DNA of 64,000 nucleotides from Pseudomonadota bacterium (GTDB taxonomy: Bacteria > Desulfobacterota > UBA8473). Both the position numbers and the translations under genes were made by a program. The stretch lies in contig JBDRRJ010000009.1 in the NCBI GenBank assembly GCA_043825855.1, positions 17,866 to 81,865 of the forward strand, given 5' to 3'. The notes beneath the pieces are model-generated. The model was not told the origin of the DNA, did not search any database, and saw nothing but the letters and a program-made list of their open reading frames with translations. The stretch's first letter is position 1. Every line of letters begins with the position of its first letter. Shown piece by piece: positions 1,707 to 33,505 of the stretch.

Positions 1707-3346
1707 CAGATACCCGTTTCATCCTTTACGTCGGCCATGCCGGCCATTTGTGCCACGGCCATCGCCCGTGCCATTAGCGCACCGAGATCCGCTGGATCCA
1801 TTTCTCCCCACAGATCAATTATGCGATCGCGCAGGTCAGCGAGGTCCCGAACGGATGGATCATCGACCAGGCTTTTGATTCTGGACATGAACTCCTCGTC
1901 AGTTATAGACATAGCCTCTTGTGCCAGGCGCTCAGAAATAAGGTCAGCATCGTCAATTTCGCCCCACAGTGGATTATCTCCTGTCCTTGCCATGAGGATA
2001 ACCCTCATCCCATGCCGGTCGTTCAACCCATGCCTAATTTTGGCCGCCAGCGGGGCATTATTTCCGGATGGATCGGGTTGAATATCATCAAGCGGCGTCT
2101 CACCTTTCTGCGGCATAGGTACCTTAAAACGGTCGGAAACATGTTCGGCAGACATTGGCTGCCTCATCTTGCGCAGATTGAGATATACCGTGCTGAGCTT
2201 TGCCAGATCCTCAGCGGGCTCATACATGAGCTTGAACCACGGCAAAGGCTTGTCCCAACCAAAGTTGTAGCCAACTAGCGGCCGTACAATTTGAAACCGG
2301 ATAGTCTTGCTCAGTGCCTCGGCATCTGCCTCGGTTAGATCGTGGCGCACCTTATCCTGCGCACTTTCATTGCCAAGCTTACCTGGTGTTCCTTCTGTAG
2401 TCGCTGTTTGGCCGAGAATGGCCTTAGATATCTCCTTGTTGCAGAAATCGGCCAGCGTCTCATAGATGCTGCTGCTTCCGCCACCGGACTGCTTCATGGC
2501 CTCCACAAACTCGATCTCGGTATTCTTCGAGATGATCCCGGCGGCATCCGATCCCAATGAGCGGATGGCTGCAAACAGGGCGTCTTTGTCTTCCCTTGAC
2601 GCACCGGCATCGTACTTACCAATTCGGAGCGGCATACCGAAGACCTCGGCAAATGCAACCCAGTCCTTCACATCATAATTCTTAAAGAGATACATCCATG
2701 CGCAGACCCGCAGTATTCCAGCCCGTGTATCATACCCGGATCGAGCTTTATAGCGGTGGTAGACCAGCTTCCAGGGCGGCATCTGTTCGCCGTTTACAGG
2801 CTCAGTCTCGGTGATGATCCTGGGTGCTTCGTAACTCTTTTTCCATATATTTCCTGTCAGGTCATAGAAGACGGCCTTTTTTGCGTGGATCCACTGGAGG
2901 TCATTGATTATGGCTGAAGATCTGTCAATGCCCCACATGATTTCGAGCATGGAGTATCCCTTGCCTATGGAGTCCAGCAGATCGAGCAAGGCATCCTCGA
3001 AGCTCGAAACGTTAAAAAGACAATCGGAGACAAAATCACGAATCTTTTTGTCCTCGGCAGACTCAGACCATGCCGTGATGTCATAGTCGAGACCGAGGAC
3101 TGCGTTTTTGCGTGTCTGAAGCTCTGAGAAGAGATGCGTGTCCTTCTCTTCCATCTCTTCAAATAATTCGGCCTGCCGATAAACGCTGCCACCGTCTGCC
3201 TCCTTGAAAATCGAACTGAGTCTCTGCGGTGTGAGCCCCTCGCTCGGATAGCTTGACCAGCGATCGCGGATGGTAGTGACTGCGATCTCACGGGTCTCAG
3301 GCCTTTTTTTAATCTCTATCTCTCTTCCAAACTGATCCAGTATCAT
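1706..3346 (-). CDS. Portal protein, Mu gp29-like (DUF935)
   Basis: 546 aa sitting between TerL and gpF. Size and position match Mu gp29. Confidence 0.8.
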   Translation of the reverse strand: MILDQFGREIEIKKRPETREIAVTTIRDRWSSYPSEGLTPQRLSSIFKEADGGSVYRQAELFEEMEEKDTHLFSELQTRKNAVLGLDYDITAWSESAEDKKIRDFVSDCLFNVSSFEDALLDLLDSIGKGYSMLEIMWGIDRSSAIINDLQWIHAKKAVFYDLTGNIWKKSYEAPRIITETEPVNGEQMPPWKLVYHRYKARSGYDTRAGILRVCAWMYLFKNYDVKDWVAFAEVFGMPLRIGKYDAGASREDKDALFAAIRSLGSDAAGIISKNTEIEFVEAMKQSGGGSSSIYETLADFCNKEISKAILGQTATTEGTPGKLGNESAQDKVRHDLTEADAEALSKTIRFQIVRPLVGYNFGWDKPLPWFKLMYEPAEDLAKLSTVYLNLRKMRQPMSAEHVSDRFKVPMPQKGETPLDDIQPDPSGNNAPLAAKIRHGLNDRHGMRVILMARTGDNPLWGEIDDADLISERLAQEAMSITDEEFMSRIKSLVDDPSVRDLADLRDRIIDLWGEMDPADLGALMARAMAVAQMAGMADVKDETGI

Positions 3347-3354
3347 TCTATTCT

Positions 3355-3450
3355 CCGTTCACCGTTCACATTTGTCGTTCACCGTTTTCCGTTCACCGTC
3401 CGCCGACAAAACGGACAACGGATAACGGATAACATATAACGATCAATACG
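3355..3450. repeat. Iteron-like array of 7-mers: CGTTCAC repeats followed by AACGGA(T/C) repeats, immediately upstream of the portal gene start. An inverted copy of the same element lies at 10414..10467.
   Basis: Sequence read directly: ccgttcaccgttcacatttgtcgttcaccgttttccgttcaccgtccgccgacaaaacggacaacggataacggataacatataacgatc. Confidence 0.6.
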
Positions 3451-5020
3451 CCCCTCTCTGAATAAATGCGCCTGGTATTCTTATATTGTGATCGTCATCG
3501 TCGCCTGCGGCAAAACGCCGCCTGAGAACAGTTTCGTATTCAACTGGACCCGCTTCGCCTTCATTTGTAGCAAACCAGGCTAACGCGCCAGCAACGCCGG
3601 AATCGCCGTGGCGTTGTTTGTTGTCCTTGCCCTTCATTTTGGTTTCAGGGAGTTTGGCAACGCCGCGGATAACCTTGAATGCACGATGATCCTCTATAAT
3701 GTCGGCGTCTTTCGGTAGCAGGATGGACCGATCCTCAAAGGCCGATTTGTAACGGGGCATATTATCCCGATACCAGGGCTCAGTGAGCATGATCTGGGCA
3801 ATCCGTTCTGCCCCGTATTTCTGCATGGCCACTTCCGCCAGGTACTGACCGTTTCCGCGTGCGTCCAGTGCACCGTAACGGAATCTGGGGAGACGATCGA
3901 CGATGTAAAAGAGTATCTGTTCCTGCTGCTTGAAGGGAATGTTTCGGAGTTCCACAACAAAGGGTGCCCTGAAATTTGCACTCTGTAATTCGCAGAGGGG
4001 AATAATGACCGTTAGATCGCCCGTTCTTCCGAAATCCTCTCCAAAATATGATGCACGTTTCTCATCTAAACCTTTAAGTAGTTCCTTAAGGTTCTCCTCA
4101 CACCAATCCTTCACTTCAGCGTATCGGAGATGGTCTGCCACCTCCGCAAATGATTTTGGCTGCTCATATCGGAGTATCGGAATATCCTCAGAAAGGCATG
4201 TTTCGATCAGGGCACGAGTCAGATAGACGCCGGTTCCCTGTGATGGTATACAAAAGAGTTCCTCGTCGGCATCATCGCCATAGGAATCGATGACCTCCTG
4301 ACGCCAGGCAGTTTCGCCTTCCGCTGTCCATTCCCTTTTCAACACCTCGCATATCCGCTTATAGAGACCGTCTTGTAATGCCTCATCCAAGTCGACACGA
4401 TGGAGACTATATGGTTTCTTTCCCGCCCGGATATCCTGGACAAGACCATTAAAATCGTTGGCATCCCCGAAGTGTGTGGATATGATCCGCACCTGACCGC
4501 CCCAGATGAGCAGCGCCATTGCCGCTTTGAGTAATCCGGCCAGATCGTCATGGAAAGCCGCCTCATCGAGCACCACACGTCCCTGCTTGCCGCGAAGGTT
4601 AGTAGGCCGGGATGAAAGCGCCGTAATGCGCCAGCCGGAGGCAAACGTGATCTGATAGGCGAGTATCTTTTTTTCCTGCACGACACCTTCAAATTCTTCC
4701 TCATCCGGTATCTCGACCTCTTCCATTTCAGATGCGGTTAGATTATAGGCACGTGCCCAGTTGGCGCAGTCATTGATGAATTCGATGGCCATGTCTTTTG
4801 TATAACCGATGTACCAGACGTTACGCTTTTCTCCCTTTCCCTTTTCAGATGCATAGAGGGCATCGTCTGCTGCCTCGGCCCACGAAATACCGATACGCCG
4901 GGATTTTTCCATAACCTTCACCGGAGACTGGTCTGCCACCCAACGGGTTTGATACGGTAACAATACGCCCGTGGCAGAGCGCGCTTGGTCAAAATCATTT
5001 TGGATGGTCGCTTCGGTCAT
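3443..5020 (-). CDS. Terminase large subunit, Mu gp28-like
   Basis: 525 aa with N-terminal ATPase-like and C-terminal nuclease-like regions. Sits between the gp27-like gene and the portal gene. Confidence 0.8.
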   Translation of the reverse strand: MTEATIQNDFDQARSATGVLLPYQTRWVADQSPVKVMEKSRRIGISWAEAADDALYASEKGKGEKRNVWYIGYTKDMAIEFINDCANWARAYNLTASEMEEVEIPDEEEFEGVVQEKKILAYQITFASGWRITALSSRPTNLRGKQGRVVLDEAAFHDDLAGLLKAAMALLIWGGQVRIISTHFGDANDFNGLVQDIRAGKKPYSLHRVDLDEALQDGLYKRICEVLKREWTAEGETAWRQEVIDSYGDDADEELFCIPSQGTGVYLTRALIETCLSEDIPILRYEQPKSFAEVADHLRYAEVKDWCEENLKELLKGLDEKRASYFGEDFGRTGDLTVIIPLCELQSANFRAPFVVELRNIPFKQQEQILFYIVDRLPRFRYGALDARGNGQYLAEVAMQKYGAERIAQIMLTEPWYRDNMPRYKSAFEDRSILLPKDADIIEDHRAFKVIRGVAKLPETKMKGKDNKQRHGDSGVAGALAWFATNEGEAGPVEYETVLRRRFAAGDDDDHNIRIPGAFIQRGAY

Positions 5021-10471: not shown

Positions 10472-12736
10472 TTATGAATAAGTCCCATATTTCCTCACCA
10501 TCTCCCAATACTCTCTCTGCCCTTCAGTCATTCTATTTTCATAATCGAGTTTAAAAGCCTGGTCAGATTCGTTTAGCTCACCGCCTGCGATTTCGTAGTC
10601 CACACAGAATGTGTATCTGGTCAGATCGTTCAGGAAGTATGTTGGTCTAACAGGCAGGGGTTTTATTCTGATGTTGTTTTTGCTTTTTTCTGCCTGAGCC
10701 TCCAGCTCTGCCATCTCTGCCTTCAGCTCTTCATCGGTCCATTCTCTGTTCAGCTCATACTGTTCGTCTGCCCTTTTCTTTTTATCCCTGCCTATAAGTG
10801 CGGCTGCTTTTTCTACAGATGATATTTTGGAGTGCTGTATAAAGTCTGGAATATTTGATGTGAGCTGTCTGTATTCTGCGATGCATTCCTTCCGGCGGCG
10901 GGCTTTCTCTTCAATCTTTTTCTCTGCTATGCCCTTGTTTTTCATGCTTGAGTATTCCACTAACTCTGCCTGGCAGAGATATTCACCCTTCGTGAATACA
11001 AGCAGCCATTCGGGATCCATCGGGTCATACCTGATCTCAACCTTTTCGCCTTTTTCAAGGTTGATGGGTATTAGAGCATCGTGCTCATACAGCTCGTTCC
11101 TGAATGTTATCCTGCCCCTGTCCACGCTCCTGGCATCCCTGGCAAGGAATATGAGGTCGGTGGTATCATTGTTTAGATATGTCGGCTGCCAGCCGTCCTG
11201 ACAGCACATCTTCAGGCAGTCCATAGGGGTTATTTCTCTGGGTTTTGGTCTCCATACCCATTCTTTTCTCACTCCCCTGTGGGCTTTAGTTTTGTTGTAG
11301 AAGTCCATTGCTTTATAAAGAATTACCCTGAACTCGCTGAAGGTGAGAAGTTTTCCGGCTTTTGCAAGTTTTTCGATCTCCTTCTGATCGACTTCCTGTT
11401 CTTCCTGGGATGCCGTCAGACGTTTCACGTATCCGGGAACCATGAACGTATTTCTTAATAACTGTTCAAATATGCTGAACGTCCCCTCGATCATTTTGGC
11501 TTTAGCATTTCGGACGATAGCCTTTCTGTGCATTCCGGGGATAATCACGCATGGATTGATCTCTTCAGGGTCTATGTCAACAGAACAGGCAGGGATATCT
11601 ATAACATTCTCGGCACTCATATGCAGTGATCGGATGTCTTTCATTATGCTCTGGATGTATTTTGATTCTTCCGGTTTGCCGTGGTCTGTGTAGATGGATC
11701 CAAATGCCCCGAATATCTTTACCCCGATACGCAGTGCCAGACCCATTAGCTGGCTGTCATACTTTCTGTCGACTGCGCCGCCATAGAAACACCGTGTCCT
11801 GAGATCCTGCCAGAAATATCCCTCTGGTCTGAATACCTCTCCGGTGTCGTCATCCACCACCCAGAAATCAAACCTATGCTGATCCCCGACGAGGATCTCA
11901 AACGGAGCGAGGTCGGAATAATTTCTGAGAACAGGTGGCAGGGTGTTGTCCAGGGCCCTGACTCCACCTCTTTGCAGGGCAAGAAGCTGAGGGGTGACCC
12001 TCTTCTTGAGCCACCAGAGTGCGCTCTCGTATCCGCCTATATCCCAGCCCCTCTTAGTTGCCTCTTCCTGCAGGATGGCATAAAGTTTCTTTTTGCCGTC
12101 TTTGGCGAGTTTTCTGTGTTCCTTCTTTAAACATAGTCCAACCCACCAGTCTATAGCCTCCGGAGTCCACGTCTTTGCCTGCTTGGGCTTGCTGTGTTTC
12201 AGCCCGGCAAGTCCGCCTTTTTCGTATTTCTGTATTTTTCTATATATAGTAGATATAGTGGTGTCGTGTTTTAGAGCTACAGCCTCGATCCACTCTCTCT
12301 TTTTCCATCCTCTGGGTACGTTGAGTGCTTCCTGAACTATCCGGCTCGATTTCTGCACTCCTTCGTCATGCAGTATATTTATATTTATAGCTGTGTTGCC
12401 TGACCATGCATCTGATCCGCCTGTGGAGGCTGATGACATCGACATGTCAGGGAGATATTTATTTGCAACCTCAATGGCTGCCTCCGGGGCAAGGGATGAT
12501 ATGAGAAGAGGGGATACGTCGTGTTCGGTGACGTATCTTTTTTGTGCATCAGGGGAAAGACATGAGAGGGCTATTTTGGTGATTACACCATTTTTACCCC
12601 CTCCATTCGGTGCAGGTACCTGTGATACTTTTTTGTAATAACCAGAGTTAATCCTTCTCTGAATTGTCTTTTCTGAGCAATTTTCGATGTCCACCACCTG
12701 TTTTTGAGTTAAATAGATGTCATCCATACGCAACAC
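10472..12736 (-). CDS. MuA-like DDE transposase (N-terminal DNA-binding domains, rve core, Mu transposase C-terminal)
   Basis: 754 aa sitting between Ner and B. It has HTH-like N-terminal domains and a DDE integrase-like core (…VGDQHRFDFWVVDD…). Confidence 0.85.
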   Translation of the reverse strand: MLRMDDIYLTQKQVVDIENCSEKTIQRRINSGYYKKVSQVPAPNGGGKNGVITKIALSCLSPDAQKRYVTEHDVSPLLISSLAPEAAIEVANKYLPDMSMSSASTGGSDAWSGNTAININILHDEGVQKSSRIVQEALNVPRGWKKREWIEAVALKHDTTISTIYRKIQKYEKGGLAGLKHSKPKQAKTWTPEAIDWWVGLCLKKEHRKLAKDGKKKLYAILQEEATKRGWDIGGYESALWWLKKRVTPQLLALQRGGVRALDNTLPPVLRNYSDLAPFEILVGDQHRFDFWVVDDDTGEVFRPEGYFWQDLRTRCFYGGAVDRKYDSQLMGLALRIGVKIFGAFGSIYTDHGKPEESKYIQSIMKDIRSLHMSAENVIDIPACSVDIDPEEINPCVIIPGMHRKAIVRNAKAKMIEGTFSIFEQLLRNTFMVPGYVKRLTASQEEQEVDQKEIEKLAKAGKLLTFSEFRVILYKAMDFYNKTKAHRGVRKEWVWRPKPREITPMDCLKMCCQDGWQPTYLNNDTTDLIFLARDARSVDRGRITFRNELYEHDALIPINLEKGEKVEIRYDPMDPEWLLVFTKGEYLCQAELVEYSSMKNKGIAEKKIEEKARRRKECIAEYRQLTSNIPDFIQHSKISSVEKAAALIGRDKKKRADEQYELNREWTDEELKAEMAELEAQAEKSKNNIRIKPLPVRPTYFLNDLTRYTFCVDYEIAGGELNESDQAFKLDYENRMTEGQREYWEMVRKYGTYS

Positions 12737-12835: not shown

Positions 12836-13318
12836 TCATACTTCCTTCAATCCATCGAGAAGGGCTCTTCTCTTTTTGATCCCCTTATTGATTTTATCCC
12901 TCTGTTCCAGGAGTTTCTGTATGTCTGCCCTCAACGCTTCTTTGCCGGGCAGCACAAATACACCAGCTTTCATGCCCAGAAAATCAAGGAGCCCGGAGCT
13001 CTCCACGGAAATACAGAATGCAGGAGCAAAAATAGCCGGAAAGCGGTGGAGCTCTTTGCTCTCCGCAGTCCAGCTATCCAACATACTCTTGGTGATCTCA
13101 GTACCTGTAAGCTCGCTCATCCGGCCTGCTACGTGATACCGAGAGTATGGACATTTTTTGAGTTCGGCTGAAATCAATTCCCTGAATTCGATGTCTATGT
13201 TAAGGGAGCCTGCTTTGGGTAAACTATCCTCTTCCTGAGCCTTTTTCAGTATGTCAAAGAGGCTGAGTTGCTTGTCGTTGTTTTTGTCTATTCTTTTTCG
13301 TAACTTAGACATTGACAT
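12836..13318 (-). CDS. Hypothetical early protein between ner and A
   Basis: 160-aa basic protein with no recognised domain. Confidence 0.35.
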   Translation of the reverse strand: MSMSKLRKRIDKNNDKQLSLFDILKKAQEEDSLPKAGSLNIDIEFRELISAELKKCPYSRYHVAGRMSELTGTEITKSMLDSWTAESKELHRFPAIFAPAFCISVESSGLLDFLGMKAGVFVLPGKEALRADIQKLLEQRDKINKGIKKRRALLDGLKEV

Positions 13319-13415: not shown

Positions 13416-13616
13416 TTATGCTGCTTTCTTAGGTGAAAAGAGCTTATCAATAGGGACCCCAAGCTCTCTGGCAATAGCCTCCTGGGTTGGCCTGGGATGT
13501 TTGCGCCCATAATATGTCTGAGATGTCCATGTCCTAGACCTGCCTATACGGATGGAAAGTTCGGTTATCGTTATTTCCTTTTCGATTAAAAGATGCCGTT
13601 TATCCTTAATGTTCAT
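13416..13616 (-). CDS. Ner-like DNA-binding protein (Mu Ner / Cro analogue)
   Basis: 66 aa; …TELSIRIGRSRTWTSQTYYGRKHPRPTQEAIARELGVPIDKLF aligns with Mu Ner …LSRQFGYAPTTLANALERHWPKGEQIIANALETKPEVIW. It is divergent from the c repressor. Confidence 0.55.
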   Translation of the reverse strand: MNIKDKRHLLIEKEITITELSIRIGRSRTWTSQTYYGRKHPRPTQEAIARELGVPIDKLFSPKKAA

Positions 13617-13747
13617 TTGTTGTCCTCTTAATAATTAACGTTTGACAACCACCAAAACCAATATAATCGCATAGCAATCAAAATAATTTAACTACCATTG
13701 GAGATAGAATACAAAAAGTCAGAAATGACAATAAGTTATCTCAACGT
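13617..13747. promoter_or_regulatory. Divergent c/ner switch region. Candidate plus-strand promoter with TTGACA (13642-13647) and TATAAT (13662-13667), although the spacer is only 14 nt.
   Basis: 131-bp AT-rich interval between divergent repressor genes. The hexamers were read directly; the spacing is suboptimal. Confidence 0.35.
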
Positions 13748-14344
13748 ATGTTTGCGGAAAACATTGGTATATCTCAGAGCTATCTATCGGAGCTTGAACA
13801 GAACAAAAAACCACCATCGGAACCAATTCTACTGGCCATAGAATATCGCTATGCTATACCAAAAGACTGGCTTCTCACTGGTGAAGGGGAGAAGGAAAAA
13901 ATTTCTGGCCCGCCATCCATAGCTGAACCCAGGGCGCCTTATATCCCTCCCATACCTGGTGTGATCCCCTTAAGAATAATCCCTGTTCTCGGCAGGGTTC
14001 CTGCAGGCTTTCCGGATCAGATACCGGAACAGGAAATCATAGAATATATAAAATGCCCCGATGGTCAATCAGGCTCTTATGCGCTGATCGTAAAGGGCGA
14101 AAACATGTCGCCGACAATAAAGGACGGTGACTATGTATTATTTATAAATAACGGTGATATCAAAAACGGGGATGTGATAGTTGTGAATAATGAGTGGGGT
14201 GATTCGATGATAAAACGTTATAGAGAGAAAGAAGGGGATATCCTGCTAACCAGCGACAACCCGGAATATCCAAGTTATAAGCCAAATGAGCAATACAGAA
14301 TCATAGGGAAAGTTGTAGGAGCTTGGCGGAATATAAAGGTGTAA
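13697..14344 (+). CDS. c repressor, CI/LexA-type: XRE-family HTH followed by an S24 peptidase (autocleavage) domain. The likely start is the non-ATG codon ATT at 13697; the ORF-track start at ATG 13748 truncates HTH helix 1.
   Basis: In-frame upstream translation gives TIGDRIQKVRNDNKLSQRMFAENIGISQSYLSELEQNKK, a complete XRE HTH. The C-terminus, LIVKGENMSPTIKDGDYVLFINNGDIKNGDVIVV…MIKRY, is LexA/S24-like. The only in-frame candidate start between the stop at 13664 and the ATG at 13748 is ATT. Confidence 0.75.
   Translation: MGDRIQKVRNDNKLSQRMFAENIGISQSYLSELEQNKKPPSEPILLAIEYRYAIPKDWLLTGEGEKEKISGPPSIAEPRAPYIPPIPGVIPLRIIPVLGRVPAGFPDQIPEQEIIEYIKCPDGQSGSYALIVKGENMSPTIKDGDYVLFINNGDIKNGDVIVVNNEWGDSMIKRYREKEGDILLTSDNPEYPSYKPNEQYRIIGKVVGAWRNIKV
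14281..14342. repeat. Copy 1 of a ~62-bp imperfect direct repeat, formed by the 3-prime end of the c repressor gene. Copy 2 is at 17171..17233.
   Basis: gccaaatgagcaatacagaatcatagggaaagttgtaggagcttggcggaatataaaggtgta compared with gccaaacgagcattattattatcataggaaaagttgtaggggcttggcggaatataaaagtgta. The last 42 nt match at 39 of 42 positions, and the upstream similarity crosses a reading-frame shift. Confidence 0.7.
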
Positions 14345-14365
14345 AGATTAAAAGAGGGATCAAAA

Positions 14366-14797
14366 ATGAAATCACTAGTTATTCAGTGGCTCGTTGGACT
14401 TACAATCTCCCTGGGTATTGGTCAAATAGTCACTTGGGGTTTCTTGAAATGCTTGCGATCGTGCATCAAAATACCGGAGGGTATATTTTCAAGCGAAAGA
14501 TTTAAGGGCGTTCCTCCTTGGCTCATTGGAACAATTGAACGGATATTTTTTACATTTATCGTTGCGTTTGATATTTCTGGATTCGCAACAGCAATGATCT
14601 TATGGATTGCGACCAAAATGCTTTCAGGTTGGCACCGGGCAGTGCCAGGTATTAGAGTTCGACTGAATGATGAAGAATATGAACTGAATCACAGAGACAT
14701 TGTACCGGTTTCTTTTTCTTCTCTTCTTGGAAATTTGGTTTCTATGTTTTTTGCTTTGATAGGCGGATTAATCTGTCAGGGGAGGATATGGTGGTAA
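14366..14797 (+). CDS. Four-TM membrane protein encoded immediately downstream of the c repressor and probably co-transcribed with it (RexB-like position and topology)
   Basis: 143 aa with four hydrophobic segments. An RBS (aagaggga) lies 8 nt upstream, and the gene starts only 21 bp after the repressor stop. Confidence 0.5.
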   Translation: MKSLVIQWLVGLTISLGIGQIVTWGFLKCLRSCIKIPEGIFSSERFKGVPPWLIGTIERIFFTFIVAFDISGFATAMILWIATKMLSGWHRAVPGIRVRLNDEEYELNHRDIVPVSFSSLLGNLVSMFFALIGGLICQGRIWW

Positions 14798-14996
14798 AAA
14801 TACACAAGCATTTAATTGAGTGGTTAATATGCAAAAGTTGGTGTTAGTTGGTACTATATAATTGTTTGTTCGACTCGAAGAAGAGGAATATATTATGACT
14901 ATCAGCACAAAGTTTTCGAGGAAATTAATTGATTTACCTTCAGTTTATGGAATATAAGGAATGCTGTCAATGTGGATAACTGAAAGGAGGAAGGCT

Positions 14997-15344
14997 ATGG
15001 TTTTGAAAGAGATATTAGAAAAAATTAGGCTGGTCGATATTCAAACTACTGTAAAGGACGTATTCAAGAGCAAACAGTTTGGATTAGTAAATATAGAAAA
15101 AAATATTTACAACCTCGACATGTCTGACGAGAAGGCAAAAAATTTTATTGCCATAAAAGTAGATGAAGCTCTTGAAAGAAAAGTAAAAGAAGCGGCAATA
15201 AAGCGTTTAGAGCCGATCGGTGACGCTATAGATTTATTGTCGGCATCTACTGCCACTTCAATCGTTGCTTCAACTATGACGACCGCCACTTTAGACATAA
15301 TTGCTCCTTTACCTAAAATAACTATTAAGGGTCATGAAGAATAA
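14997..15344 (+). CDS. Hypothetical cargo protein. Start moved from the ORF-track position to the ATG at 14997, which has a strong RBS (aaaggaggaagg).
   Basis: 115 aa (MVLKEILEKIR…) with no recognised domain. Confidence 0.4.
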   Translation: MVLKEILEKIRLVDIQTTVKDVFKSKQFGLVNIEKNIYNLDMSDEKAKNFIAIKVDEALERKVKEAAIKRLEPIGDAIDLLSASTATSIVASTMTTATLDIIAPLPKITIKGHEE

Positions 15345-15438
15345 TAAATACCGGCTACGTTTCGGCTACGAAAAATAGTTAAAAGTGTCTTTTTTGTGTC
15401 GTTCAATTTAAATGTTATAGGTCATAAGGAGACTAATT

Positions 15439-15722
15439 ATGGGAAAGAAAAGCGGAAGTTTTGATGAAAAAGGTATTGAAGAATTAGCCAAAGATAAACC
15501 CGTCGTATACAAAATTGAAGACGACAAAGGCAATACCCTCTATGCAGGTGTTGCAAAAAGAGGGAGAGTTGAAGAACGCATCAAAGAACATTTGCCCGGG
15601 GTCCTGTACGTGGTGGGGTGAAAGTTCGAATTCAGCAAAAACCGAGTATTATGGACGCGGAAAAAGCCGAGGCTAGAATAATAAAGAAACAACAACCACC
15701 TCAGAATAAGAAAGGCAAGTGA
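15439..15722 (+). pseudogene. Small GIY-YIG-family nuclease gene interrupted by a frameshift in a G4 run (15615-15618). Either a pseudogene, a programmed frameshift or a sequencing error.
   Basis: Frame 1 gives …PVVYKIEDDKGNTLYAGVAKRGRVEERIKEHLPGVLYVVG* (GIY-YIG motifs VYKI…LYAGVA…R…EH). Frame 3, read from 15615, continues …GVKVRIQQKPSIMDAEKAEARIIKKQQPPQNKKGK*, which matches the GIY-YIG C-terminal helix and the E/N residues. Confidence 0.45.
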
Positions 15723-15913
15723 CTTATAACAAATCACTTCACCGCAACCCAACTGCACTTCGCTTCGGTGAGTGTAGCGATAGGCCTTCTTATCAAAACG
15801 CCTATTGCTCCACTATTCGAGAAGGTCCATATATAGACCAGTGAGAAAGAAACAAATTACAACTGGGAAAATACAAATAATCAAAATAGTTAATATTGAT
15901 TAATCCATAGTGA

Positions 15914-16414
15914 ATGTCTATGCGGGATAGAATTTGGAATAATTTATACAATATTAAGTTCAAGGCTTTATATACTTGTGAATGTTCTAAAATAGCCGAG
16001 AGGGTTGGACGTTTTTTCTCTTTATTTATAGCTCTTGCCTCTGCTGGCAGTATTGCAACATGGGCAGTTTGGAAAGAAATACCTTCTGTGTGGGCATCTA
16101 TTATTGCAGTTTCCCAGGTATTACATATCACAAAGCATTACATCCCCTTTATCAAAAATGACAAATCGCTTCTTGAGTTGTCGTACGAATTTGAATCACT
16201 CTATATTGAATTTGAAAAACTTTGGTACTCCCTCGAAAATGAAAAAATAACCACTGACGAAGCAGAACAAAAATTTTATGAACTGCGTAACCAAGCATTG
16301 AATATTGAAAAAAATCATAAAGAAATCCATTGCCCAGATTTTAAGAGTTGGAAAGAAAAAGTTAATGAGGCAACAGAGAGTGCTATCAAAATCCATTTTT
16401 CAAAAGGAGATTAA
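15914..16414 (+). CDS. Two-TM membrane protein with a C-terminal helical domain, SLATT-like effector architecture
   Basis: 166 aa with two TM helices (FFSLFIALASAGSIATWAVW and IPSVWASIIAVSQVLHI) followed by a helical, charged C-terminal region. The size and topology match SLATT-domain effectors. Confidence 0.4.
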   Translation: MSMRDRIWNNLYNIKFKALYTCECSKIAERVGRFFSLFIALASAGSIATWAVWKEIPSVWASIIAVSQVLHITKHYIPFIKNDKSLLELSYEFESLYIEFEKLWYSLENEKITTDEAEQKFYELRNQALNIEKNHKEIHCPDFKSWKEKVNEATESAIKIHFSKGD

Positions 16415-16416
16415 TC

Positions 16417-16548
16417 ATGGCAAAAGGAAAACCTTCTCCCCCACCACCTAGGCCAAAACCAAATCGAACTTCGCCGCCGCCTTTTACGCATAGTGTACCA
16501 GATGCTCCAAAAATTCCACCACCTCCCCCACCCAAAAAAGGAAAATAA
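16417..16548 (+). CDS. Proline-rich basic micropeptide of 43 aa, translationally coupled to the 2-TM gene. It is below the ORF-track length cutoff.
   Basis: MAKGKPSPPPPRPKPNRTSPPPFTHSVPDAPKIPPPPPPKKGK. The ATG sits 2 nt after the upstream stop, with an RBS (aaaaggaga) 7 nt upstream. The peptide contains PPPP, PPP and PPPPPP runs. Confidence 0.4.
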   Translation: MAKGKPSPPPPRPKPNRTSPPPFTHSVPDAPKIPPPPPPKKGK

Positions 16549-17170
16549 TGGCATAACAATTGGAGTAACTTGAGACCGGGAAGCCCGGGATTCTTGCGAT
16601 CATGTCAGTGGCGGCGCACATTACTTCGAACAAAGGTGGTATAAGAATATATTGTTCAAAAATGTAAAAAGTAGTACAAAAATGTTCATTAGTAACCTAT
16701 CCATATCAATTCTTCCCATCCCCAAACAATAGATTACACAAAAAAATTGATTTATTTTCTATGGCTTCGTAAAAAGTCTATCTGCGGCTTTGTGCCGAAT
16801 CCTCCGTCGTTGCGGCATATTCCTAAGTACGCGCCTCACTCCTCAGGATTTGTGCGCCTTGTATCCGGGGTTTTATGCTTATTCTAAGGAGACTTCGGCA
16901 TGTTTTATGCGGTATATTATATATTGTGTTAGTCCGCTCGTCTCACTCAATGGCCCCGGAGAATTCGGGGCACGGAAGTTATAGGACAGGTAACTCTCAT
17001 GCAATGGTCAGACAAATCAGCCGTCGCGTTAGGAAGGGGATGTCGTACGACCGATTCACGTCTGTCTCAACTATGCTCCGCTACTGTCAGCGGGATGGCC
17101 CTGCTGGCGCTGGCCAGCTGGCAGATGAATGCGCTGTTCTTGTCCGGACAGTGGGCTACCTATATTTTAA

Positions 17171-17233
17171 GCCAAACGAGCATTATTATTATCATAGGAA
17201 AAGTTGTAGGGGCTTGGCGGAATATAAAAGTGT
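17171..17233. repeat. Copy 2 of the ~62-bp direct repeat, a remnant of a repressor 3-prime end, at the far side of the cargo cassette
   Basis: See 14281..14342. Only the final 13 codons (IGKVVGAWRNIKV) of ORF 16999..17247 resemble the repressor. Confidence 0.7.
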
Positions 17234-17287
17234 ATGAAAAAAAGTAATATAATTTACTTCTCAGTTTGAAGCGAAAAGGGAAATAAT

Positions 17288-20200
17288 ATGGCAGAAAAGA
17301 CTAAAAAAATTTGGCTATATGTGCTCGCTTTAGTTGCAATATTGATACTCGCTTTAGTTGTAACGTTAATCATTACAGGGGGGGCGCGACGAATACTTGT
17401 ATCCAGGGACAAAGTCGCGGTAGATCAAAGTACAGTATCGAATAATAAGCGTGCGGATATCTCTAGTGGAATTATCCATGCAAGCGAGCTTGCTTTTGCC
17501 CGTCAACCTCACAAAGGTTCCAGCGACCGTGAGGTGCGTGTCGGATTATACCAGAACAAACCAAAGATTTTCACAAGTGAGACAGGTCAGCCCTCGGGTT
17601 TATTCATTGAAATCCTCGAAGAGATTGCCCGAAGAGAGAGATGGAAATTGATTTATGTACCGGGTGAATGGTCTGAGTGTTTACGCGCTCTAGAAGAGGG
17701 TAGGATTGATTTGATGCCGGATGTCGCCTTTTCGCCGGAACGAGACGAGAAATATGATTTCCACGAAGAGGAGGTTATCGAAAGCTGGTCACAACTATAT
17801 ACCAACAAAGATAAACCTGTGAAGAATTTTTCCGACCTGAACGGACTGCGGCTTGCCCTGCTCAAAGGTTCAATTCAACAAAAGATTTTAGAAGAGATGA
17901 TAAAAGGGTTCGGCTATAAGGTTTCTATTGTTGAGGTTCATTCCTTCGAAGAAGCCTTTACCCATGCAGCCAATGGCGCTGTCGATGTGGTTGTTTCAAA
18001 CCACCTTTTTGGAGACTATTTTTATCAGGAATACGGGCTGGTAAAGACAACAATTATTTTCAACCCGGTGCCATTATATTTTGCAACAGCCTCTGGCGCC
18101 AACCATGATCTACTTGAGGCTATTGACCATAATTTACGGATAATGAAATCTGAACCCGGCTCTGTTTTCTATAAGATTTTGGCGCATTGGATGGAAAGAC
18201 CACCAAAGGTGGTTGTGCCGCGGTATCTCGTTCGAATCATGGGCGGCATCGGCGGGTGCCTCGCCTTGGCTTTCGTGTTCATTTTACTGCTTCGCAGTCA
18301 GGTGAAGATAAAAACAAGACATCTGTCCCAGACTAATGAAACGTTGCGCAAAAGCGAAGAAAAATATCGCACCCACTTTGAAAACGTATCTGATGTTATC
18401 TTCTCATTCGATAGGGAGTTCAGAATTCTCAACATATCACCCTCCCTGGAACGAATTTTGGGATACAAGCCTGAAGAATTCATCGGCAAGTCTTTTGCAG
18501 AGCTAAATATTCTATCACCCGAATACCTTGAGAAGGCCTTCTCCGATGGAATGCGAGTATTTGCCGGCGAGAATGTAGATTTATTAAACTATGAATTTAT
18601 TGCCAGGGATGGAACGAAAAAATATGTGGAAATTAGCGGTGGCCCTTTAATCCGCGACGGTCAGGTTGTAGCAGTGATTTCCGTCGCAAGGGACGTCACT
18701 GAGCGCAAACGGGCGGATGAACGTTTGGACGTGGAGGCCAAACGAGCCAAAATCCTTTTGGAATTATACCTCAAGGCCCCAAGCTTATCCGACAAAGAAC
18801 TCTACGATTATGTTCTGGACAAAGCAGTCGATCTCACGGGAAGCGCAATCGGATTTTTCCATCTGGTGGATGAAGATCAGAAGACGATTATTCTCACCAC
18901 ATGGAACTCTGAAGCCTTCAAGGGCTGTACCGCTGCTTATGACACTCACTATTCCGTTGAAGAGGCAGGAAACTGGGTAGATTGTGTGCGCCAGGGGAAA
19001 CCGATTATATACAACGATTTTTCTGTTTCCCCAAATCAGAAGGGGCTTCCGGAAGGGCATACACCCTTAAAACGGTTCATGAGCATTCCCGTAATCGAAG
19101 GCGGTAAGATACACTATATTTTTGGTGTGGGTAATAAATCAGGGGTTTATGAGGAACATGATGTTGTTCAGATTCAATTAGTTGCCAATGAACTATCCAA
19201 GATCATAAGGCAACGTAAGGCAGATAGAGCATTAAAAGAGAGTGAGAAGAGATATCGGGGTCTCTTCGATAATGTCTTAGACATGATTCATATCGTGGAC
19301 AAGAATGGAATAATAATTGATGCTAACCCCATAGAACTGAAAACTATGGGGTATACCAGAGATGAATATATCGGGAAGCGTCTGCCAGAGATAGTCCATC
19401 CTGATTTCCAGGAAACAACCAAAGAAAGGTTTGAAAGGATATTAAAAGGGCAAAATATTAAATTATATGAGACCGTTTTGGTAACGAAAGGTAGTGAAAA
19501 AATTTATGTGGAAGTAAACGCTGTTCCTCTGGCAGAGGGTAATGAAATAGTTGGAGCGAGGGAGGTTGTGAGAGACGTCACTGAGCGCAAACAGTTGTTA
19601 GATCAAGTCAAACAGAGATTAGAGCGCTTGGAAGCCCTGCGAGCCATAGACATGGCTATTACCGCTAGCCTCGACATCCGCGTTACCCTTAGCGTATTCT
19701 TGGAACAGGTCATTAATACTTTAGGTGTAGATGCGGCAGATGTCCTCCTTCTTAATACACAAATCCATAATAGGCTTGCATTTGTTGCCGGGCGTGGCTT
19801 TCAGACAACTGCCCTTCGACACACAAATTTACCTATAGGCGCCGGTTATGCGGGCAGGGTTGCCCAGGAAAGGAAAACCTTCTGCATTTCTGACCTGCAA
19901 AAGGAATCGCAGGATTTTTTAAAGCAATCCCCTCAACTCAGTAATGAAGATTTTGTCTCCTACTACGCCACACCACTTATTGCGAAAGGGCAAGTTAGGG
20001 GCGTCCTGGAAGTATTCAACCGCACGCCTCTTAAACCTGAACAGGAATGGCTGGATTTTTTGGAAGCTCTGGCTACACAAGCAGCTATTGCTGTAGATAA
20101 CGCCGAGCTTTTCGATGACCTACAGAAGAGCAACATTGATCTGCTTCATGCCTATGACGACACGTTGGAAGGATGGTCTAAGGCTCTGGATCTGCGCGAT

Positions 20201-20713
20201 AAGGAAACGGAGGGACATAGTCAACGTGTCACAGAGATGACTTTGCGATTGGCTGACCAAATGGGCATAAGAAACCGCGAACTGGTGAATGTGCGAAGAG
20301 GCGCACTGCTTCACGACATCGGCAAGATGGGTATTCCTGACCCCATCCTTCTCAAACCGGGTGCCCTGAATAAAGAAGAATGGGAAATCATGCACAAACA
20401 TCCGGTCTATGCTTACGAACTCCTCACCCCAATTTCTTATCTGAGACCGGCACTGGACATTCCCTACTGTCACCATGAAAAATGGGACGGCACGGGCTAC
20501 CCGCGCGGACTAAAGGGGAAACATATTCCACTGGCAGCGAGGATCTTTGCAGTTGTCGACGTCTGGGATGCGCTGTGCTCAGAGCGCCCTTACCGTCCTG
20601 CATGGCCGGAAGAGAAAGTCCATGAACACATCAAGGAGCAGACCGGTAAACACTTTGATCCGAAGGTGGTGGAGGCGTTCCTGGAACTCTCGAATGAATT
20701 CAAACCTGAGTAA
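17288..20713 (+). CDS. Membrane sensor protein: periplasmic solute-binding (SBP_bac_3-like) domain, TM, then PAS-GAF-PAS-GAF, ending in an HD-GYP phosphodiesterase domain
   Basis: 1141 aa. TM segments flank an SBP-like region. PAS motifs include NVSDVIFSFDREFRILNISP. The HD-GYP signatures are HDIGKMGIPD and HHEKWDGTGYPRGLKG. Confidence 0.9.
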   Translation: MAEKTKKIWLYVLALVAILILALVVTLIITGGARRILVSRDKVAVDQSTVSNNKRADISSGIIHASELAFARQPHKGSSDREVRVGLYQNKPKIFTSETGQPSGLFIEILEEIARRERWKLIYVPGEWSECLRALEEGRIDLMPDVAFSPERDEKYDFHEEEVIESWSQLYTNKDKPVKNFSDLNGLRLALLKGSIQQKILEEMIKGFGYKVSIVEVHSFEEAFTHAANGAVDVVVSNHLFGDYFYQEYGLVKTTIIFNPVPLYFATASGANHDLLEAIDHNLRIMKSEPGSVFYKILAHWMERPPKVVVPRYLVRIMGGIGGCLALAFVFILLLRSQVKIKTRHLSQTNETLRKSEEKYRTHFENVSDVIFSFDREFRILNISPSLERILGYKPEEFIGKSFAELNILSPEYLEKAFSDGMRVFAGENVDLLNYEFIARDGTKKYVEISGGPLIRDGQVVAVISVARDVTERKRADERLDVEAKRAKILLELYLKAPSLSDKELYDYVLDKAVDLTGSAIGFFHLVDEDQKTIILTTWNSEAFKGCTAAYDTHYSVEEAGNWVDCVRQGKPIIYNDFSVSPNQKGLPEGHTPLKRFMSIPVIEGGKIHYIFGVGNKSGVYEEHDVVQIQLVANELSKIIRQRKADRALKESEKRYRGLFDNVLDMIHIVDKNGIIIDANPIELKTMGYTRDEYIGKRLPEIVHPDFQETTKERFERILKGQNIKLYETVLVTKGSEKIYVEVNAVPLAEGNEIVGAREVVRDVTERKQLLDQVKQRLERLEALRAIDMAITASLDIRVTLSVFLEQVINTLGVDAADVLLLNTQIHNRLAFVAGRGFQTTALRHTNLPIGAGYAGRVAQERKTFCISDLQKESQDFLKQSPQLSNEDFVSYYATPLIAKGQVRGVLEVFNRTPLKPEQEWLDFLEALATQAAIAVDNAELFDDLQKSNIDLLHAYDDTLEGWSKALDLRDKETEGHSQRVTEMTLRLADQMGIRNRELVNVRRGALLHDIGKMGIPDPILLKPGALNKEEWEIMHKHPVYAYELLTPISYLRPALDIPYCHHEKWDGTGYPRGLKGKHIPLAARIFAVVDVWDALCSERPYRPAWPEEKVHEHIKEQTGKHFDPKVVEAFLELSNEFKPE

Positions 20714-30985: not shown

Positions 30986-33505
30986 TTAAATTGTTGCAGT
31001 AACAGGCGCCTTAAATCTCCCCAATCTCAAAGCATTTGAGACTACGGTAACAGATGAGAGCCCCATAGCAGCGGCAGCAAAGATTGGGTTTAAGAGTATT
31101 CCGAAAAAGGGGAAAAGAACACCAGCAGCAACGGGAATCAGAATAGTATTGTATGCAAATGCCCAGAAAAGGTTCTGTTTGACGTTCCTTATAGTAGCCT
31201 TGCTCAAGGCAATTGCTGTAACTACACCCTGTAAATCTCCACTGATAAGGGTGATATCCGCTGCTTCCATGGCAATATCTGTACCTGTACCAATAGCAAT
31301 ACCTATATCTGCCTGCGCCAAAGCAGGGGCGTCATTAATCCCGTCCCCAACCATGGCCACTTTTTTCCCTTCTTGCTGCAACTTTTTAACTTCACTGGCC
31401 TTACCTTCGGGAAGAACTTCTGCAAGAACCCTTTTTATACCTATCTGTTCAGCTATAGCACTGGCGGTTCTCTGGTTATCTCCTGTTATCATTATTACTT
31501 CAAGTCCCAGCTTATACAATCTGGCAACAGCCTTCTTTGAATTGTCCTTCAGGGTGTCTGCTACCGCAATAATACCTCCGGGGTTTCCATCAATAGCCAC
31601 ATACATAGGGGTCTTCCCCTGGTTGGAGATGTACTCTGCCTTTTCCACGAGATCTCCAATTTCGATTTTCCTGTCTTTCATAAGCTTTATATTACCCAGC
31701 AATACCTTTTTGCCGTTTATAGTAGCCTCAATGCCATAGCCTGGAATTGCATTAAAATCAGACGGTATCTCTGTAATTAGCTTTTGTTCCTTTGCTTTAG
31801 TAACGATTGCCTCACCGAGTGGATGTTCTGACCCTCTTTCAGCTGAGGCCGAAAGAGCTAGTATGTCCTCTGGTTTAAAACCTTTACTGGCTACAACATC
31901 GGTTACAGACGGCTCACCTTTTGTCAGAGTGCCTGTTTTATCAAGAACAATAGCGTTCAACTTGTGGGCGGTTTCCAGTGCTTCCCCGCTTCTGATAAGC
32001 ACACCATTCTCAGCCCCTTTACCAGTTCCTACCATTATAGAAGTGGGAGTTGCCAGACCAAGAGCGCAGGGACAGGCAATGATAAGAACTGCCACGAAGT
32101 TTAGCATGGCATATGTTAAGACGGGAGCGGGGCCGAAGAGATACCAAACAATAAAGGTCAGTATAGCAATCCCTATTACAACTGGTACAAAGTAGCTTGC
32201 AATTATATCTGCCATACGTGCAATGGGAGGTTTTGAGCCCTGAGCTTCTTCAACCATCTTTATTACCTGAGAGAGCATAGTATCTTTTCCTACCTTTTCA
32301 GCTTCAAACTGAAAAGTTCCGCTCTTATTTATAGTAGCGCCTATTACTTTGTCACCAGCCTCTTTCTCCACGGGGATGGACTCTCCTGTAATCATGGATT
32401 CGTCCAGGGAGGAGTAACCTTCTTTGATGATACCATCCACAGGGACCTTCTCTCCAGGTCTTACAACCAGAACATCACCCACTTCAACCTCTTCAATAGG
32501 AATATCAAGCTCTTCCCCATCCTTTATTACTCGTGCGGTTTTTGCCTGGAGTCCCATGAGTTTCTTTATTGCTTCTGAAGTCTGTCCCTTAGCTCTAGCT
32601 TCCAATAAGCGGCCGAGAAGGATAAGCACAATGATGGCACCAGCCGTATCGAAGTAGACCGTAGCTATCAATCCTTTTGCGCTAAACAATTCCGGGAAAA
32701 AGATGGCTATTACACTGTATGCATATGCTGAAGAGGTTCCCACAGCAATCAGGGTATTCATATCCGTGGTTCTATGCTTTGCAGTTTTCCAAGTACCTAC
32801 ATAAAACTGCCAGCCCACCCAGAACTGTATGGGGGTTTGAAAAAGAAGCTGGAGAATAAAGTTGGTCTGTCTGTCCCATGTCCACAATTTACTCAGACCA
32901 AGGGGGTCCCAATAGGCTAGAAGGAAGACGGGAATCACCAGAATCACGCCTACCAATAGTTTGTTTCTAAGTTTTTTAAATTCTGCTTCCCGGAGAGCCT
33001 TCTCCCTTTCGACAACATCCTTCTCTTCCACTTCCAGCACCTTGTAACCCGCATCAGTAACTGCCCTTTTCAGTTCTTTTACGGAAACTATTTCCGGGAA
33101 ATATTCAACGGTGGCTTTCTCCGTGGCTAAATTTACAGTGGCTTTAATAACCCCCTGCTCATTGTTCAACGCCTTTTCCACTCTGGATACACATGATGCG
33201 CAGGTCATTCCCTGAATGGGAAGGGTGATTTTTCCCAGGCCGACGTTGTAGCCCAAATCCTTAATAGTATTAGTTAAGCCCATAATGTTCACTTTAGACG
33301 GATTATACGTAACTGTCACCTTCTCAGTAGCAAAATTGACACGAGCATCTGATACCCCTTCCAATTCGCCAAGACTTTTTTCAATATTGGCCGCACAGCT
33401 GGCACAGCTCATATCTAAGATGCGTATATCAGACTTTATCAGAGATTCCTTTGTCATTCGTTCTTTCTTCTCCATCTTTCTTTCTTCCTCCGTTTCTTGA
33501 AGCAT
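30986..33505 (-). CDS. copA: Copper-translocating P1B-type ATPase with two N-terminal heavy-metal-associated domains
   Basis: Two CxxC metal-binding motifs ([14 protein letters not shown] and [14 protein letters not shown]), the transmembrane CPC motif, DKTGTLT and [10 protein letters not shown]. Confidence 0.95.

Follow-up and report, generated by a model that had tools for sequence, protein, structure and literature searches.

In phage lambda the repressor gene cI is followed by rexA and rexB, RexB being a protein of 144 aa with four transmembrane (TM) helices. In lysogens of the transposable Pseudomonas phage Fc02, the exclusion genes olg1 and gene 10 are expressed together with the repressor (PMC9936078), and defence hotspots of prophages and satellites have been described in P2/P4 (PMC9122126). 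Members of the SLATT superfamily, on the other hand, are predicted pore-forming effectors of defence systems (PMC9226505; DRT10 preprint, bioRxiv 10.64898/2026.04.29.721553). Here, I describe an accessory segment found directly downstream of the repressor gene of a Mu-like prophage, in a stretch of 64,000 nt (hereafter the window; positions 17,866 to 81,865 of the 87-kb contig JBDRRJ010000009.1, forward strand) from an uncultured member of the Desulfobacterota lineage UBA8473, represented by the metagenome-assembled genome (MAG) GCA_043825855.1 (locus tags ABIJ37_032xx).

Two of the five proteins encoded by this segment, a 166-aa SLATT-like membrane protein and a 43-aa polyproline peptide, apparently form a conserved and hitherto undescribed module; no paper found in a literature search links SLATT with proline-rich peptides, nor polyproline and EF-P with phage defence. 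The whole is best explained, with a probability of roughly 55%, by a mosaic arm between the repressor gene and the left end of the prophage, in which the SLATT-like/peptide pair would act in abortive infection or exclusion, and in which a decayed second copy of the repressor 3' end would be the scar of a recombination event.

A SLATT-like protein and its polyproline partner

The 166-aa protein (164 aa from the NCBI start at 15920) is concluded to belong, by remote homology, to a divergent clade of the SLATT superfamily, for the following reasons. It matches the PADLOC model RTasSLATT over residues 12-150 (E 1.2e-5, 23 bits). A profile of 32 homologues retrieves 1219 cluster representatives at E<=1e-3 and, among 125 family members scanned, three match Pfam SLATT_4 (best 1.9e-5), five and four match two PADLOC models of CBASS 2TM effectors, and three match RTasSLATT. 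The AlphaFold2 model (pLDDT 84; helices 3-43, 47-53, 57-76 and 83-161) is that of an all-helical hairpin protein, in agreement with the two-TM hairpin flanked by helices expected of SLATT proteins; its best fold matches in BFVD, a collection of viral structures, are named SLATT proteins (probability 1.0, TM-score 0.5-0.6, E 0.015-0.1), and no match to it was found in the PDB. These matches bear out the label SLATT-like, which the initial annotation had given to the protein from the letters alone. For the 143-aa membrane protein encoded at the other side of the segment, structure prediction, likewise proposed there as a check, gave a poor model (pLDDT 53) that is unusable for fold comparison.

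The open reading frame (ORF) of the peptide lies 2 nt behind that of the SLATT-like protein. In every related locus with enough DNA, the SLATT-like gene is followed by such an ORF, 38-66 aa long and preceded by a good Shine-Dalgarno sequence; the loci belong to Acidobacteriota, Planctomycetota, Sedimentisphaerales and Smithella, and the distance of the peptide start from the SLATT-like stop codon ranges from -8 to +12 nt in the window and in loci L002, L003 (two copies), L004-8, L012-16 and L018. The peptides consist of 23-48% proline, for which all four codons are used, and usually combine a (G)NVP(N/D)IP motif with 6-10 prolines in a row and a tail of charged residues. As a control of specificity, both strands of the 1.36 Mb of DNA of the collected loci were scanned for ATG-initiated ORFs of 30-80 aa having at least 5 consecutive prolines and at least 23% proline: 16 such ORFs were found, every one of them immediately downstream of a SLATT-like gene. 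The peptide, listed in the initial annotation as translationally coupled, can on account of this conservation and of the control be regarded as a real coupled gene. A K/P-rich ORF also follows distant homologues (27-34% identity) on phage contigs and on plasmids of Chondrinema and Methylobacterium, as well as those of L009-11. To judge from these loci, where it occurs without the other cargo genes, the SLATT-like gene and the peptide make up a self-contained pair.

Some of the loci show peculiar arrangements. L003 carries two polyproline peptide genes in tandem behind one SLATT-like gene (4417-4700). On the Chondrinema litorale WSW3-B12 plasmid NZ_CP111068.1 (L130, 4001-4616) the 43-aa peptide is annotated by the NCBI pipeline PGAP (WP_284689915.1), and the module is preceded by a gene for an AbiEii toxin. 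On plasmid pMOC4 of Methylobacterium oryzae CBMB20 (L131, 3791-4610) the second ORF, 66 aa long and P/S-rich, overlaps the stop of the first (ATGA) and keeps an NVPMP motif.

As to the genomic neighbourhood, the module is found next to Abi_alpha and PDC-S31 (L012), PDC-M43B (L013), a HEPN protein of the Csm6 type (L015) and, on the Chondrinema plasmid, the AbiEii gene just mentioned. In L002 (2031-6741) its neighbours are a 374-aa protein with PADLOC matches to RTasMBL and LmuA-like models, an E2/E1/JAB fusion and a patatin phospholipase, which together make up a putative system. In five Blastocatellia-type contigs (L004, at 3120-3836, and L005-L008) the module begins 47 nt downstream of recA and has a ParE/antitoxin pair behind it.

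By homology, the SLATT-like protein would be a membrane-permeabilising effector and, together with the peptide, would constitute a self-contained abortive-infection or exclusion module, the peptide being produced along with the effector as its regulator, be it as an inhibitor in the manner of an antitoxin or as a trigger. Since EF-P is required for the translation of long proline runs, production of the peptide is expected to respond with unusual sensitivity to the translation state, and its supply may report on translation; this need, combined with translational coupling, favours a toxin-antitoxin-like or abortive-infection logic. A more specific proposal, which I consider unlikely, regards the pair as an abortive-infection switch, with translation itself as the sensor, used by the prophage to exclude competitors. 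Owing to its 6-10 consecutive prolines, the peptide would be made only under normal, EF-P-assisted elongation; upon perturbation of translation by a phage, the short-lived peptide would not be replenished, or ribosomes would become stalled during its synthesis; either event would release the coupled membrane effector, which would permeabilise the cell.

Should the SLATT-like protein and the peptide work together, they would represent a minimal SLATT system needing no nucleotide or DNA signal generator, with a partner of a type not known from defence or toxin-antitoxin families. Given that the module resides on plasmids of two cultured bacteria, the Chondrinema and Methylobacterium strains named above, it is testable in culture.

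A probable mosaic arm behind the repressor

The carrier is a Mu-like transposable prophage, the left part of which spans window positions 1 to ~17.2 kb, its right end being outside the window. It encodes a MuA-type transposase and, to the left of the window on the same contig, Mu-type head genes (Portal_Mu, Phage_Mu_F, Mu-like_gpT and Gp36/37); its repressor gene is divergent from the early operon and, as in Mu, is transcribed away from it and toward the phage end (Table 1).

Table 1. Coordinates of the features discussed, from the early operon of the prophage to the flanking host gene (window positions)
Feature	Position	Strand	Evidence or remark
MuA-like, Mu-type transposase	10472..12736	-	phrog_310 transposase 2.4e-67; marks the leftward early operon
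160-aa phrog_2345 regulator	12836-13318	-	phrog_2345 3.2e-30; divergent from the repressor
66-aa Ner/Cro-like helix-turn-helix (HTH) protein	13416-13616	-	weak HTH PHROG matches; divergent from the repressor
Prophage repressor, HTH + Peptidase_S24 (LexA/CI type)	13709..14344 (13748 = first ATG)	+	Peptidase_S24 2.5e-21; HTH_3; phrog_4 1.3e-34
Repeat copy 1, genuine repressor 3' end	14275..14343	+	pairwise repeat and BLAST alignments
143-aa membrane protein, 3-4 TM	14366..14797	+	starts 21 nt past the stop of the repressor gene; preceded by AGAGGGA
115-aa orphan protein, no TM segment	14997..15344	+	behind GGAGGAAGG
Small stand-alone GIY-YIG nuclease gene, broken	15439..15722	+	fragments 15439-15621 and 15618-15722; E 0.006
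166-aa SLATT-superfamily-like membrane protein	15914..16414	+	helix at the N-terminus, then a helical hairpin (34-52/57-76) and a helical domain at the C-terminus
43-aa polyproline peptide	16417..16548	+	42% Pro, with a PPPPPP stretch and K-rich termini; Shine-Dalgarno within the 3' end of the SLATT-like gene
Region of ~600 nt in which neither a gene nor an RNA was recognised	16549..17146	.	Rfam, folding and similarity searches
Repeat copy 2, apparent decayed 3' fragment of a repressor allele (~88 nt)	17147..17234	+	frameshift, stop lost
Host sensor gene, periplasmic-binding/PAS/GAF/HD-GYP	17288..20713	+	NCBIfam PAS 1.8e-51; HD-GYP type c-di-GMP phosphodiesterase 1.1e-44

The start of the repressor is peculiar. 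Helix 1 of its HTH domain is encoded upstream of the first ATG, and no in-frame ATG, GTG or TTG would include it; within the region 13664-13750, the frame is open over 13667-13747 and devoid of a canonical start codon. For the 211 aa called by NCBI (P0043), translation would have to begin with the ATA at 13709. The two possibilities are use of a non-canonical start and damage to the N-terminus of the repressor.

The segment directly downstream of the repressor is accessory cargo, as indicated by its low GC content (37.4% in the cargo genes vs 47.5% in the phage and 41.4% in the host), by its absence from relatives, and by what relatives carry in its place. For the comparison 55 Mu-like viral contigs were used, with transposases 26-61% identical to that of the prophage, and none of them encodes any of the five cargo proteins; where an S24 repressor is present, 450-1200 bp separate its stop from the contig end, unless other genes intervene. 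The initial annotation had placed accessory cargo here and had named two checks against related prophages. As to the first, the cargo genes do not belong to the phage core; as to the second, namely whether the repressor directly abuts the phage end in relatives, a short distance to the contig end is seen in some and intervening genes in others.

The nature of these other genes is telling. In a Desulfobacterales prophage with a 72% identical repressor (L077, 2275-4500), the slot is filled by PD-Lambda-5_A (6.1e-88), the A subunit of a system reportedly described by Vassallo et al. in 2022, along with MethyltransfD12, and is followed by the host gene ComEC. L057 encodes an N6_N4 methylase fused to Mrr_cat, i.e. 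a nuclease of the Mrr type, and L029 a D12 methylase, a SacI-like enzyme and AbiV (3.6e-20). With recognised defence genes in these three slots, the stretch from the repressor to the left end is a hotspot of defence cargo in this Mu-like lineage, which, by analogy with the P2/P4 hotspots (PMC9122126), supports the general idea of the initial annotation. In another related Mu-like contig (L026, 265-1231) the genes downstream of the repressor encode a 76-aa TM protein and a 176-aa protein with the look of a helical hairpin; the latter was tried as a relative of the SLATT-like protein and rejected (hhalign probability 3%).

The same comparison bears on whether the module serves the phage life cycle or the physiology of the host, for instance in lysis timing, as a holin-like protein or in a stress- or SOS-linked membrane response, instead of anti-phage defence. 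A small membrane protein in a phage would suit such a role, several contexts are unrelated to defence (L003, L015 upstream, L017), and the position of the module behind recA in the Blastocatellia-type contigs, as well as behind a LexA-type repressor here, hints that its expression may be linked to DNA damage. Yet, absence from 55 related phages speaks against a core function; the module occupies the strand of the lysogeny genes, remote from the lysis and structural genes at the opposite end, and its homologues reside mostly on chromosomes and plasmids, beside Abi, HEPN or toxin-antitoxin genes. A role of this kind is hence improbable.

Taken as a whole, the region 14345-17234 is best described as the variable accessory ('moron') arm that reaches from the repressor gene to the left end, and as a mosaic in which no fewer than three units are independent of one another. 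The first unit would be the 143-aa membrane protein (hereafter 4TM), belonging with the repressor, the second the 115-aa orphan with the frameshifted small GIY-YIG gene, and the third the SLATT-like/peptide module. All the genes listed in the initial annotation are present; what does not hold is their reading as one cassette or system, for the 4TM protein pairs with a second repressor, and the SLATT-like gene and peptide occur elsewhere without the other cargo genes.

The second repressor, P0044 (MFH2012572.1), is 80% identical in sequence to that of the window, and a 67% identical paralog of the 4TM protein, P0038 (MFH2012571.1), is encoded by the same MAG; both lie on a 12-kb contig, and their adjacency is taken from their consecutive accessions. 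The two repressors, P0043 and P0044, have the S24 half in common (~90% identity), and their HTH halves are unrelated. P0044 would accordingly be the repressor of a heteroimmune Mu-like sibling phage, the MAG combining either a pair of sibling prophages or a pair of strains, and the repressor-4TM pair appears to move as a unit. The 4TM gene is probably read from the repressor transcript, as no terminator-like site was found in the short interval between them.

In the 4TM protein itself, residues 4-27, 53-86 (modelled as a pair of helices) and 119-142 form hydrophobic helices. No family match was found in Pfam, PADLOC, PHROGs or NCBIfam, nor any tblastn match at E<=1 in 50,697 phage genomes, lambda DNA included. 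Its family comprises six homologues and 50 metagenome loci, the neighbours in the latter being amidohydrolase, ADH, NACHT and AbiU2, with no constant partner; an upstream HTH gene, considered as such a partner in L020 and L021, failed in the 50 loci.

It is on this protein that a Rex-like, two-component exclusion system would hinge, in which the 4TM protein, as the analogue of RexB and co-transcribed with the repressor, would depolarise the membrane once infection is sensed by another protein of the cassette. The gene order recalls that of lambda, the size is nearly that of RexB (143 vs 144 aa), the 3-4 predicted TM helices are similar, and both the short, terminator-less gap and the recurrence of the pair in the second prophage speak for it. 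However, no similarity to RexA or RexB emerges from the four family collections or the phage genomes just mentioned, neither the 115-aa protein nor any other cargo protein matches RexA or a PADLOC model, the 4TM family lacks a constant partner, and the structure model is too poor for a comparison of folds. 'Rex-like', as proposed in the initial annotation, should therefore be understood as an analogy of position only, and a system of the Rex type is decidedly improbable.

As to the second unit, the 115-aa protein has no match in Pfam, PADLOC, PHROGs, NCBIfam, the PDB, phages or viral contigs. The fragments of the GIY-YIG gene are rejoined by the addition of one G at either of two G-runs (15598-15601 or 15615-15618); repaired at the former, the gene encodes 94 aa that match positions 2-74 of the 78 of Pfam GIY-YIG (E 4.8e-4, 20.8 bits, below the cut-off of 22.6). 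The disruption at a G-run, noted from the beginning, is found in an independent assembly, namely a Logan contig of SRR26275510 which is 100% identical over 14879-16690, frameshift included; neither repeat junction falls within this span.

The repeated repressor end

The direct repeat around the cargo is real. It consists of 44 nt with 93% identity (14300-14343 vs 17191-17234) and of 21 nt with 86% identity (14275-14295 vs 17165-17185) which are offset from the former by 1 nt; BLAST joins the two parts into 70 nt with a single gap and 85.7% identity (E 7.7e-19, for a search space of 3 kb). A three-way alignment suggests that weak similarity may extend back to ~17147, upstream of which no repressor similarity was found. 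Copy 1 is the genuine 3' end of the repressor gene, as proposed initially and as the S24 and phrog_4 matches of the latter attest. Copy 2, initially described as a non-coding remnant sharing the final 13 codons, keeps 14-15 in-frame codons (IIIGKVVGAWRNIKV) before the frame is lost, and its stop has mutated (TAA to TAT). Copy 2 aligns with the repressor 3' ends of relatives (78% to that of L077), and its in-frame peptide equals the C-terminus of P0044 at 15/15 residues. The longest core identical between the two copies does not exceed 19 nt.

No similar sequence was found, in any search made, for the region that separates the peptide gene from copy 2 (16549-17146). Its candidacy as a retron, a DRT non-coding RNA or an ORF-less intron was rejected, Rfam being empty at the gathering threshold and offering nothing credible at E<=5; folding z-scores of -0.8 and -1.2 give no sign of a fold. 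Within it, the 356 nt at 16791-17146, located between the AT-rich cargo and copy 2, stand out with 52.5% GC, unlike both cargo and host.

In its simplest reading, based on these alignments, copy 2 is likely to be a recombination scar and not an attachment site. An incoming block of immunity genes plus cargo from another phage would have replaced the resident immunity region by recombination, with an illegitimate right-hand joint inside the old repressor gene, ~88 nt before its end; copy 2 would be the leftover of the displaced, older allele. Recombination inside the repressor gene has occurred before, since the HTH halves of P0043 and P0044 are unrelated and the S24 half is common. If so, the scar would be the record of a joint in the exchange of immunity regions between transposable phages.

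A discrete mobile cassette that entered the repressor gene at its 3' end by site-specific integration, and that brought its own copy of that end, would also leave direct repeats on either side of the segment, then to be read as attL and attR. Copy 1 keeps the gene intact, as is the case with elements targeting 3' ends, and a GIY-YIG nuclease remnant lies inside. Nevertheless, neither the ORF list nor Pfam reveals an integrase, recombinase or transposase in 14345-17234, and terminal inverted repeats were not found at the segment borders. Moreover, the copies differ by 14% and an indel and lack a longer identical core, the composition is heterogeneous (37% vs 52.5% GC), the first cassette gene is tied to the repressor in another phage, and a similar repeat was found in 0/10 relatives with cargo; a 94-aa GIY-YIG protein, moreover, presumably lacks the DNA-binding domains of homing endonucleases. 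The repeat thus does not have the appearance of an insertion footprint, and integration of this kind is very improbable. Another explanation, likewise very improbable, is an assembly artefact, in which two related prophages of the MAG were joined at their common repressor 3' end: the 80% identical second repressor of the same MAG and the breaks of the Logan assembly at 14879 and 16690, so that it spans neither repeat junction, would permit it, but the copies are diverged and each has unique flanks, where a collapse or mis-join at a common k-mer would leave one copy, copy 2 is a pseudogene fragment instead of the intact end of either repressor, and the repressor of the second prophage neighbours a 4TM paralog, not the host sensor gene.

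If copy 2 is phage DNA, the junction between prophage and host lies between 17235 and 17287. In five of the related Mu-like viral contigs (L043, L044, L056, L057 and L058), the left ends start with TGAA(A/G)GGA directly after divergent flanks, and their first ~200 nt hold repeated ACGGTGACAAA-type sites, which are probably binding sites of the transposase. An inverted copy of 17256-17279 at 32293-32317 was considered as a phage end and dismissed as due to chance, since it falls in a P-type ATPase gene. An empty integration site, sought by looking up the host sensor protein, was not found.

Several points weigh against the explanation preferred here, i.e. a mosaic arm with a defensive SLATT-like/peptide module and a recombination scar. 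First, the links to SLATT are weak (profile 1e-5; fold E 0.015): the protein of the window matches no Pfam family, SLATT being absent even at E<=1, and hydropathy reveals a clear TM segment at 34-52 and a weaker second helix at 57-76. Second, most characterised SLATT systems have a signal-producing enzyme alongside, unlike this module: no CD-NTase/SMODS, SLOG or reverse transcriptase was found in the cassette of the window, nor directly adjacent in L002-L018 or L130. Third, the association with defence is one of neighbourhood only, in ~7/12 contexts, the remaining being neutral (recA, ribonucleotide reductase and glycogen genes), and the peptide ORF could be a cis-acting translational element instead of a functional product. 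Finally, the end motifs of the relatives (TGAARGGA..., ACGGTGACAAA) were not found in 14345-17300, so that the left end of the prophage is not located and the inclusion of the cargo in the transposable unit is deduced from the position of copy 2; copy 2, in turn, may equally stem from a local duplication.

Relation to described systems

The SLATT effectors of DRT10/UG17, DRT3, AbiA, CBASS and RADAR (Burroughs 2015; PMC9226505) resemble the 166-aa protein in size (~160 aa), in architecture (N-terminal helix, 2-TM hairpin and helical tail), in the remote profile and fold match, and in their occurrence in defence islands and prophages. Here, in contrast, no reverse transcriptase, non-coding RNA, CD-NTase, SLOG or adenosine deaminase is adjacent, the constant partner is a polyproline micropeptide, and the protein falls below every Pfam SLATT threshold. 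As for DRT10 in particular, the cassette contains no ORF or fragment of a UG17 reverse transcriptase, and 16549-17146 gives no Rfam or fold signal.

Type I/II toxin-antitoxin systems and membrane toxins regulated by small peptides are comparable in that a small membrane protein and a very small, coupled partner form a two-gene operon, and in that the module is scattered on mobile elements beside other toxin-antitoxin and Abi genes. They differ in that the peptide is here encoded downstream, not upstream; moreover, polyproline antitoxin families are not known.

With cI-rexA-rexB of lambda the locus shares accessory membrane-protein genes placed directly after the repressor on the lysogenic strand, the first of them encoding a multi-TM protein of ~143 aa. 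Its proteins are, however, unrelated in sequence to RexA and RexB, a sensor resembling RexA is missing, several unrelated units are present, and the carrier is a transposable, not a lambdoid, phage. In this latter respect Fc02 comes closer, being a transposable phage of the Mu type with small exclusion genes in its immunity region; its genes lie upstream of the repressor, overlap each other and encode unrelated proteins (PMC9936078). Their co-transcription with the repressor means that the initial claim that no characterised Mu-like phage carries such a module was overstated, even though the position differs.

Lastly, the hotspots of prophages and satellites in P2/P4 offer the parallel of a fixed genome position at which unrelated defence cargos are swapped. 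In the present case the slot extends from the repressor to the transposition end of a Mu-like phage, and its cargo is not among the listed systems; along this line, the arm between repressor and transposition end in this Mu-like lineage is a useful place to mine for further defence systems.

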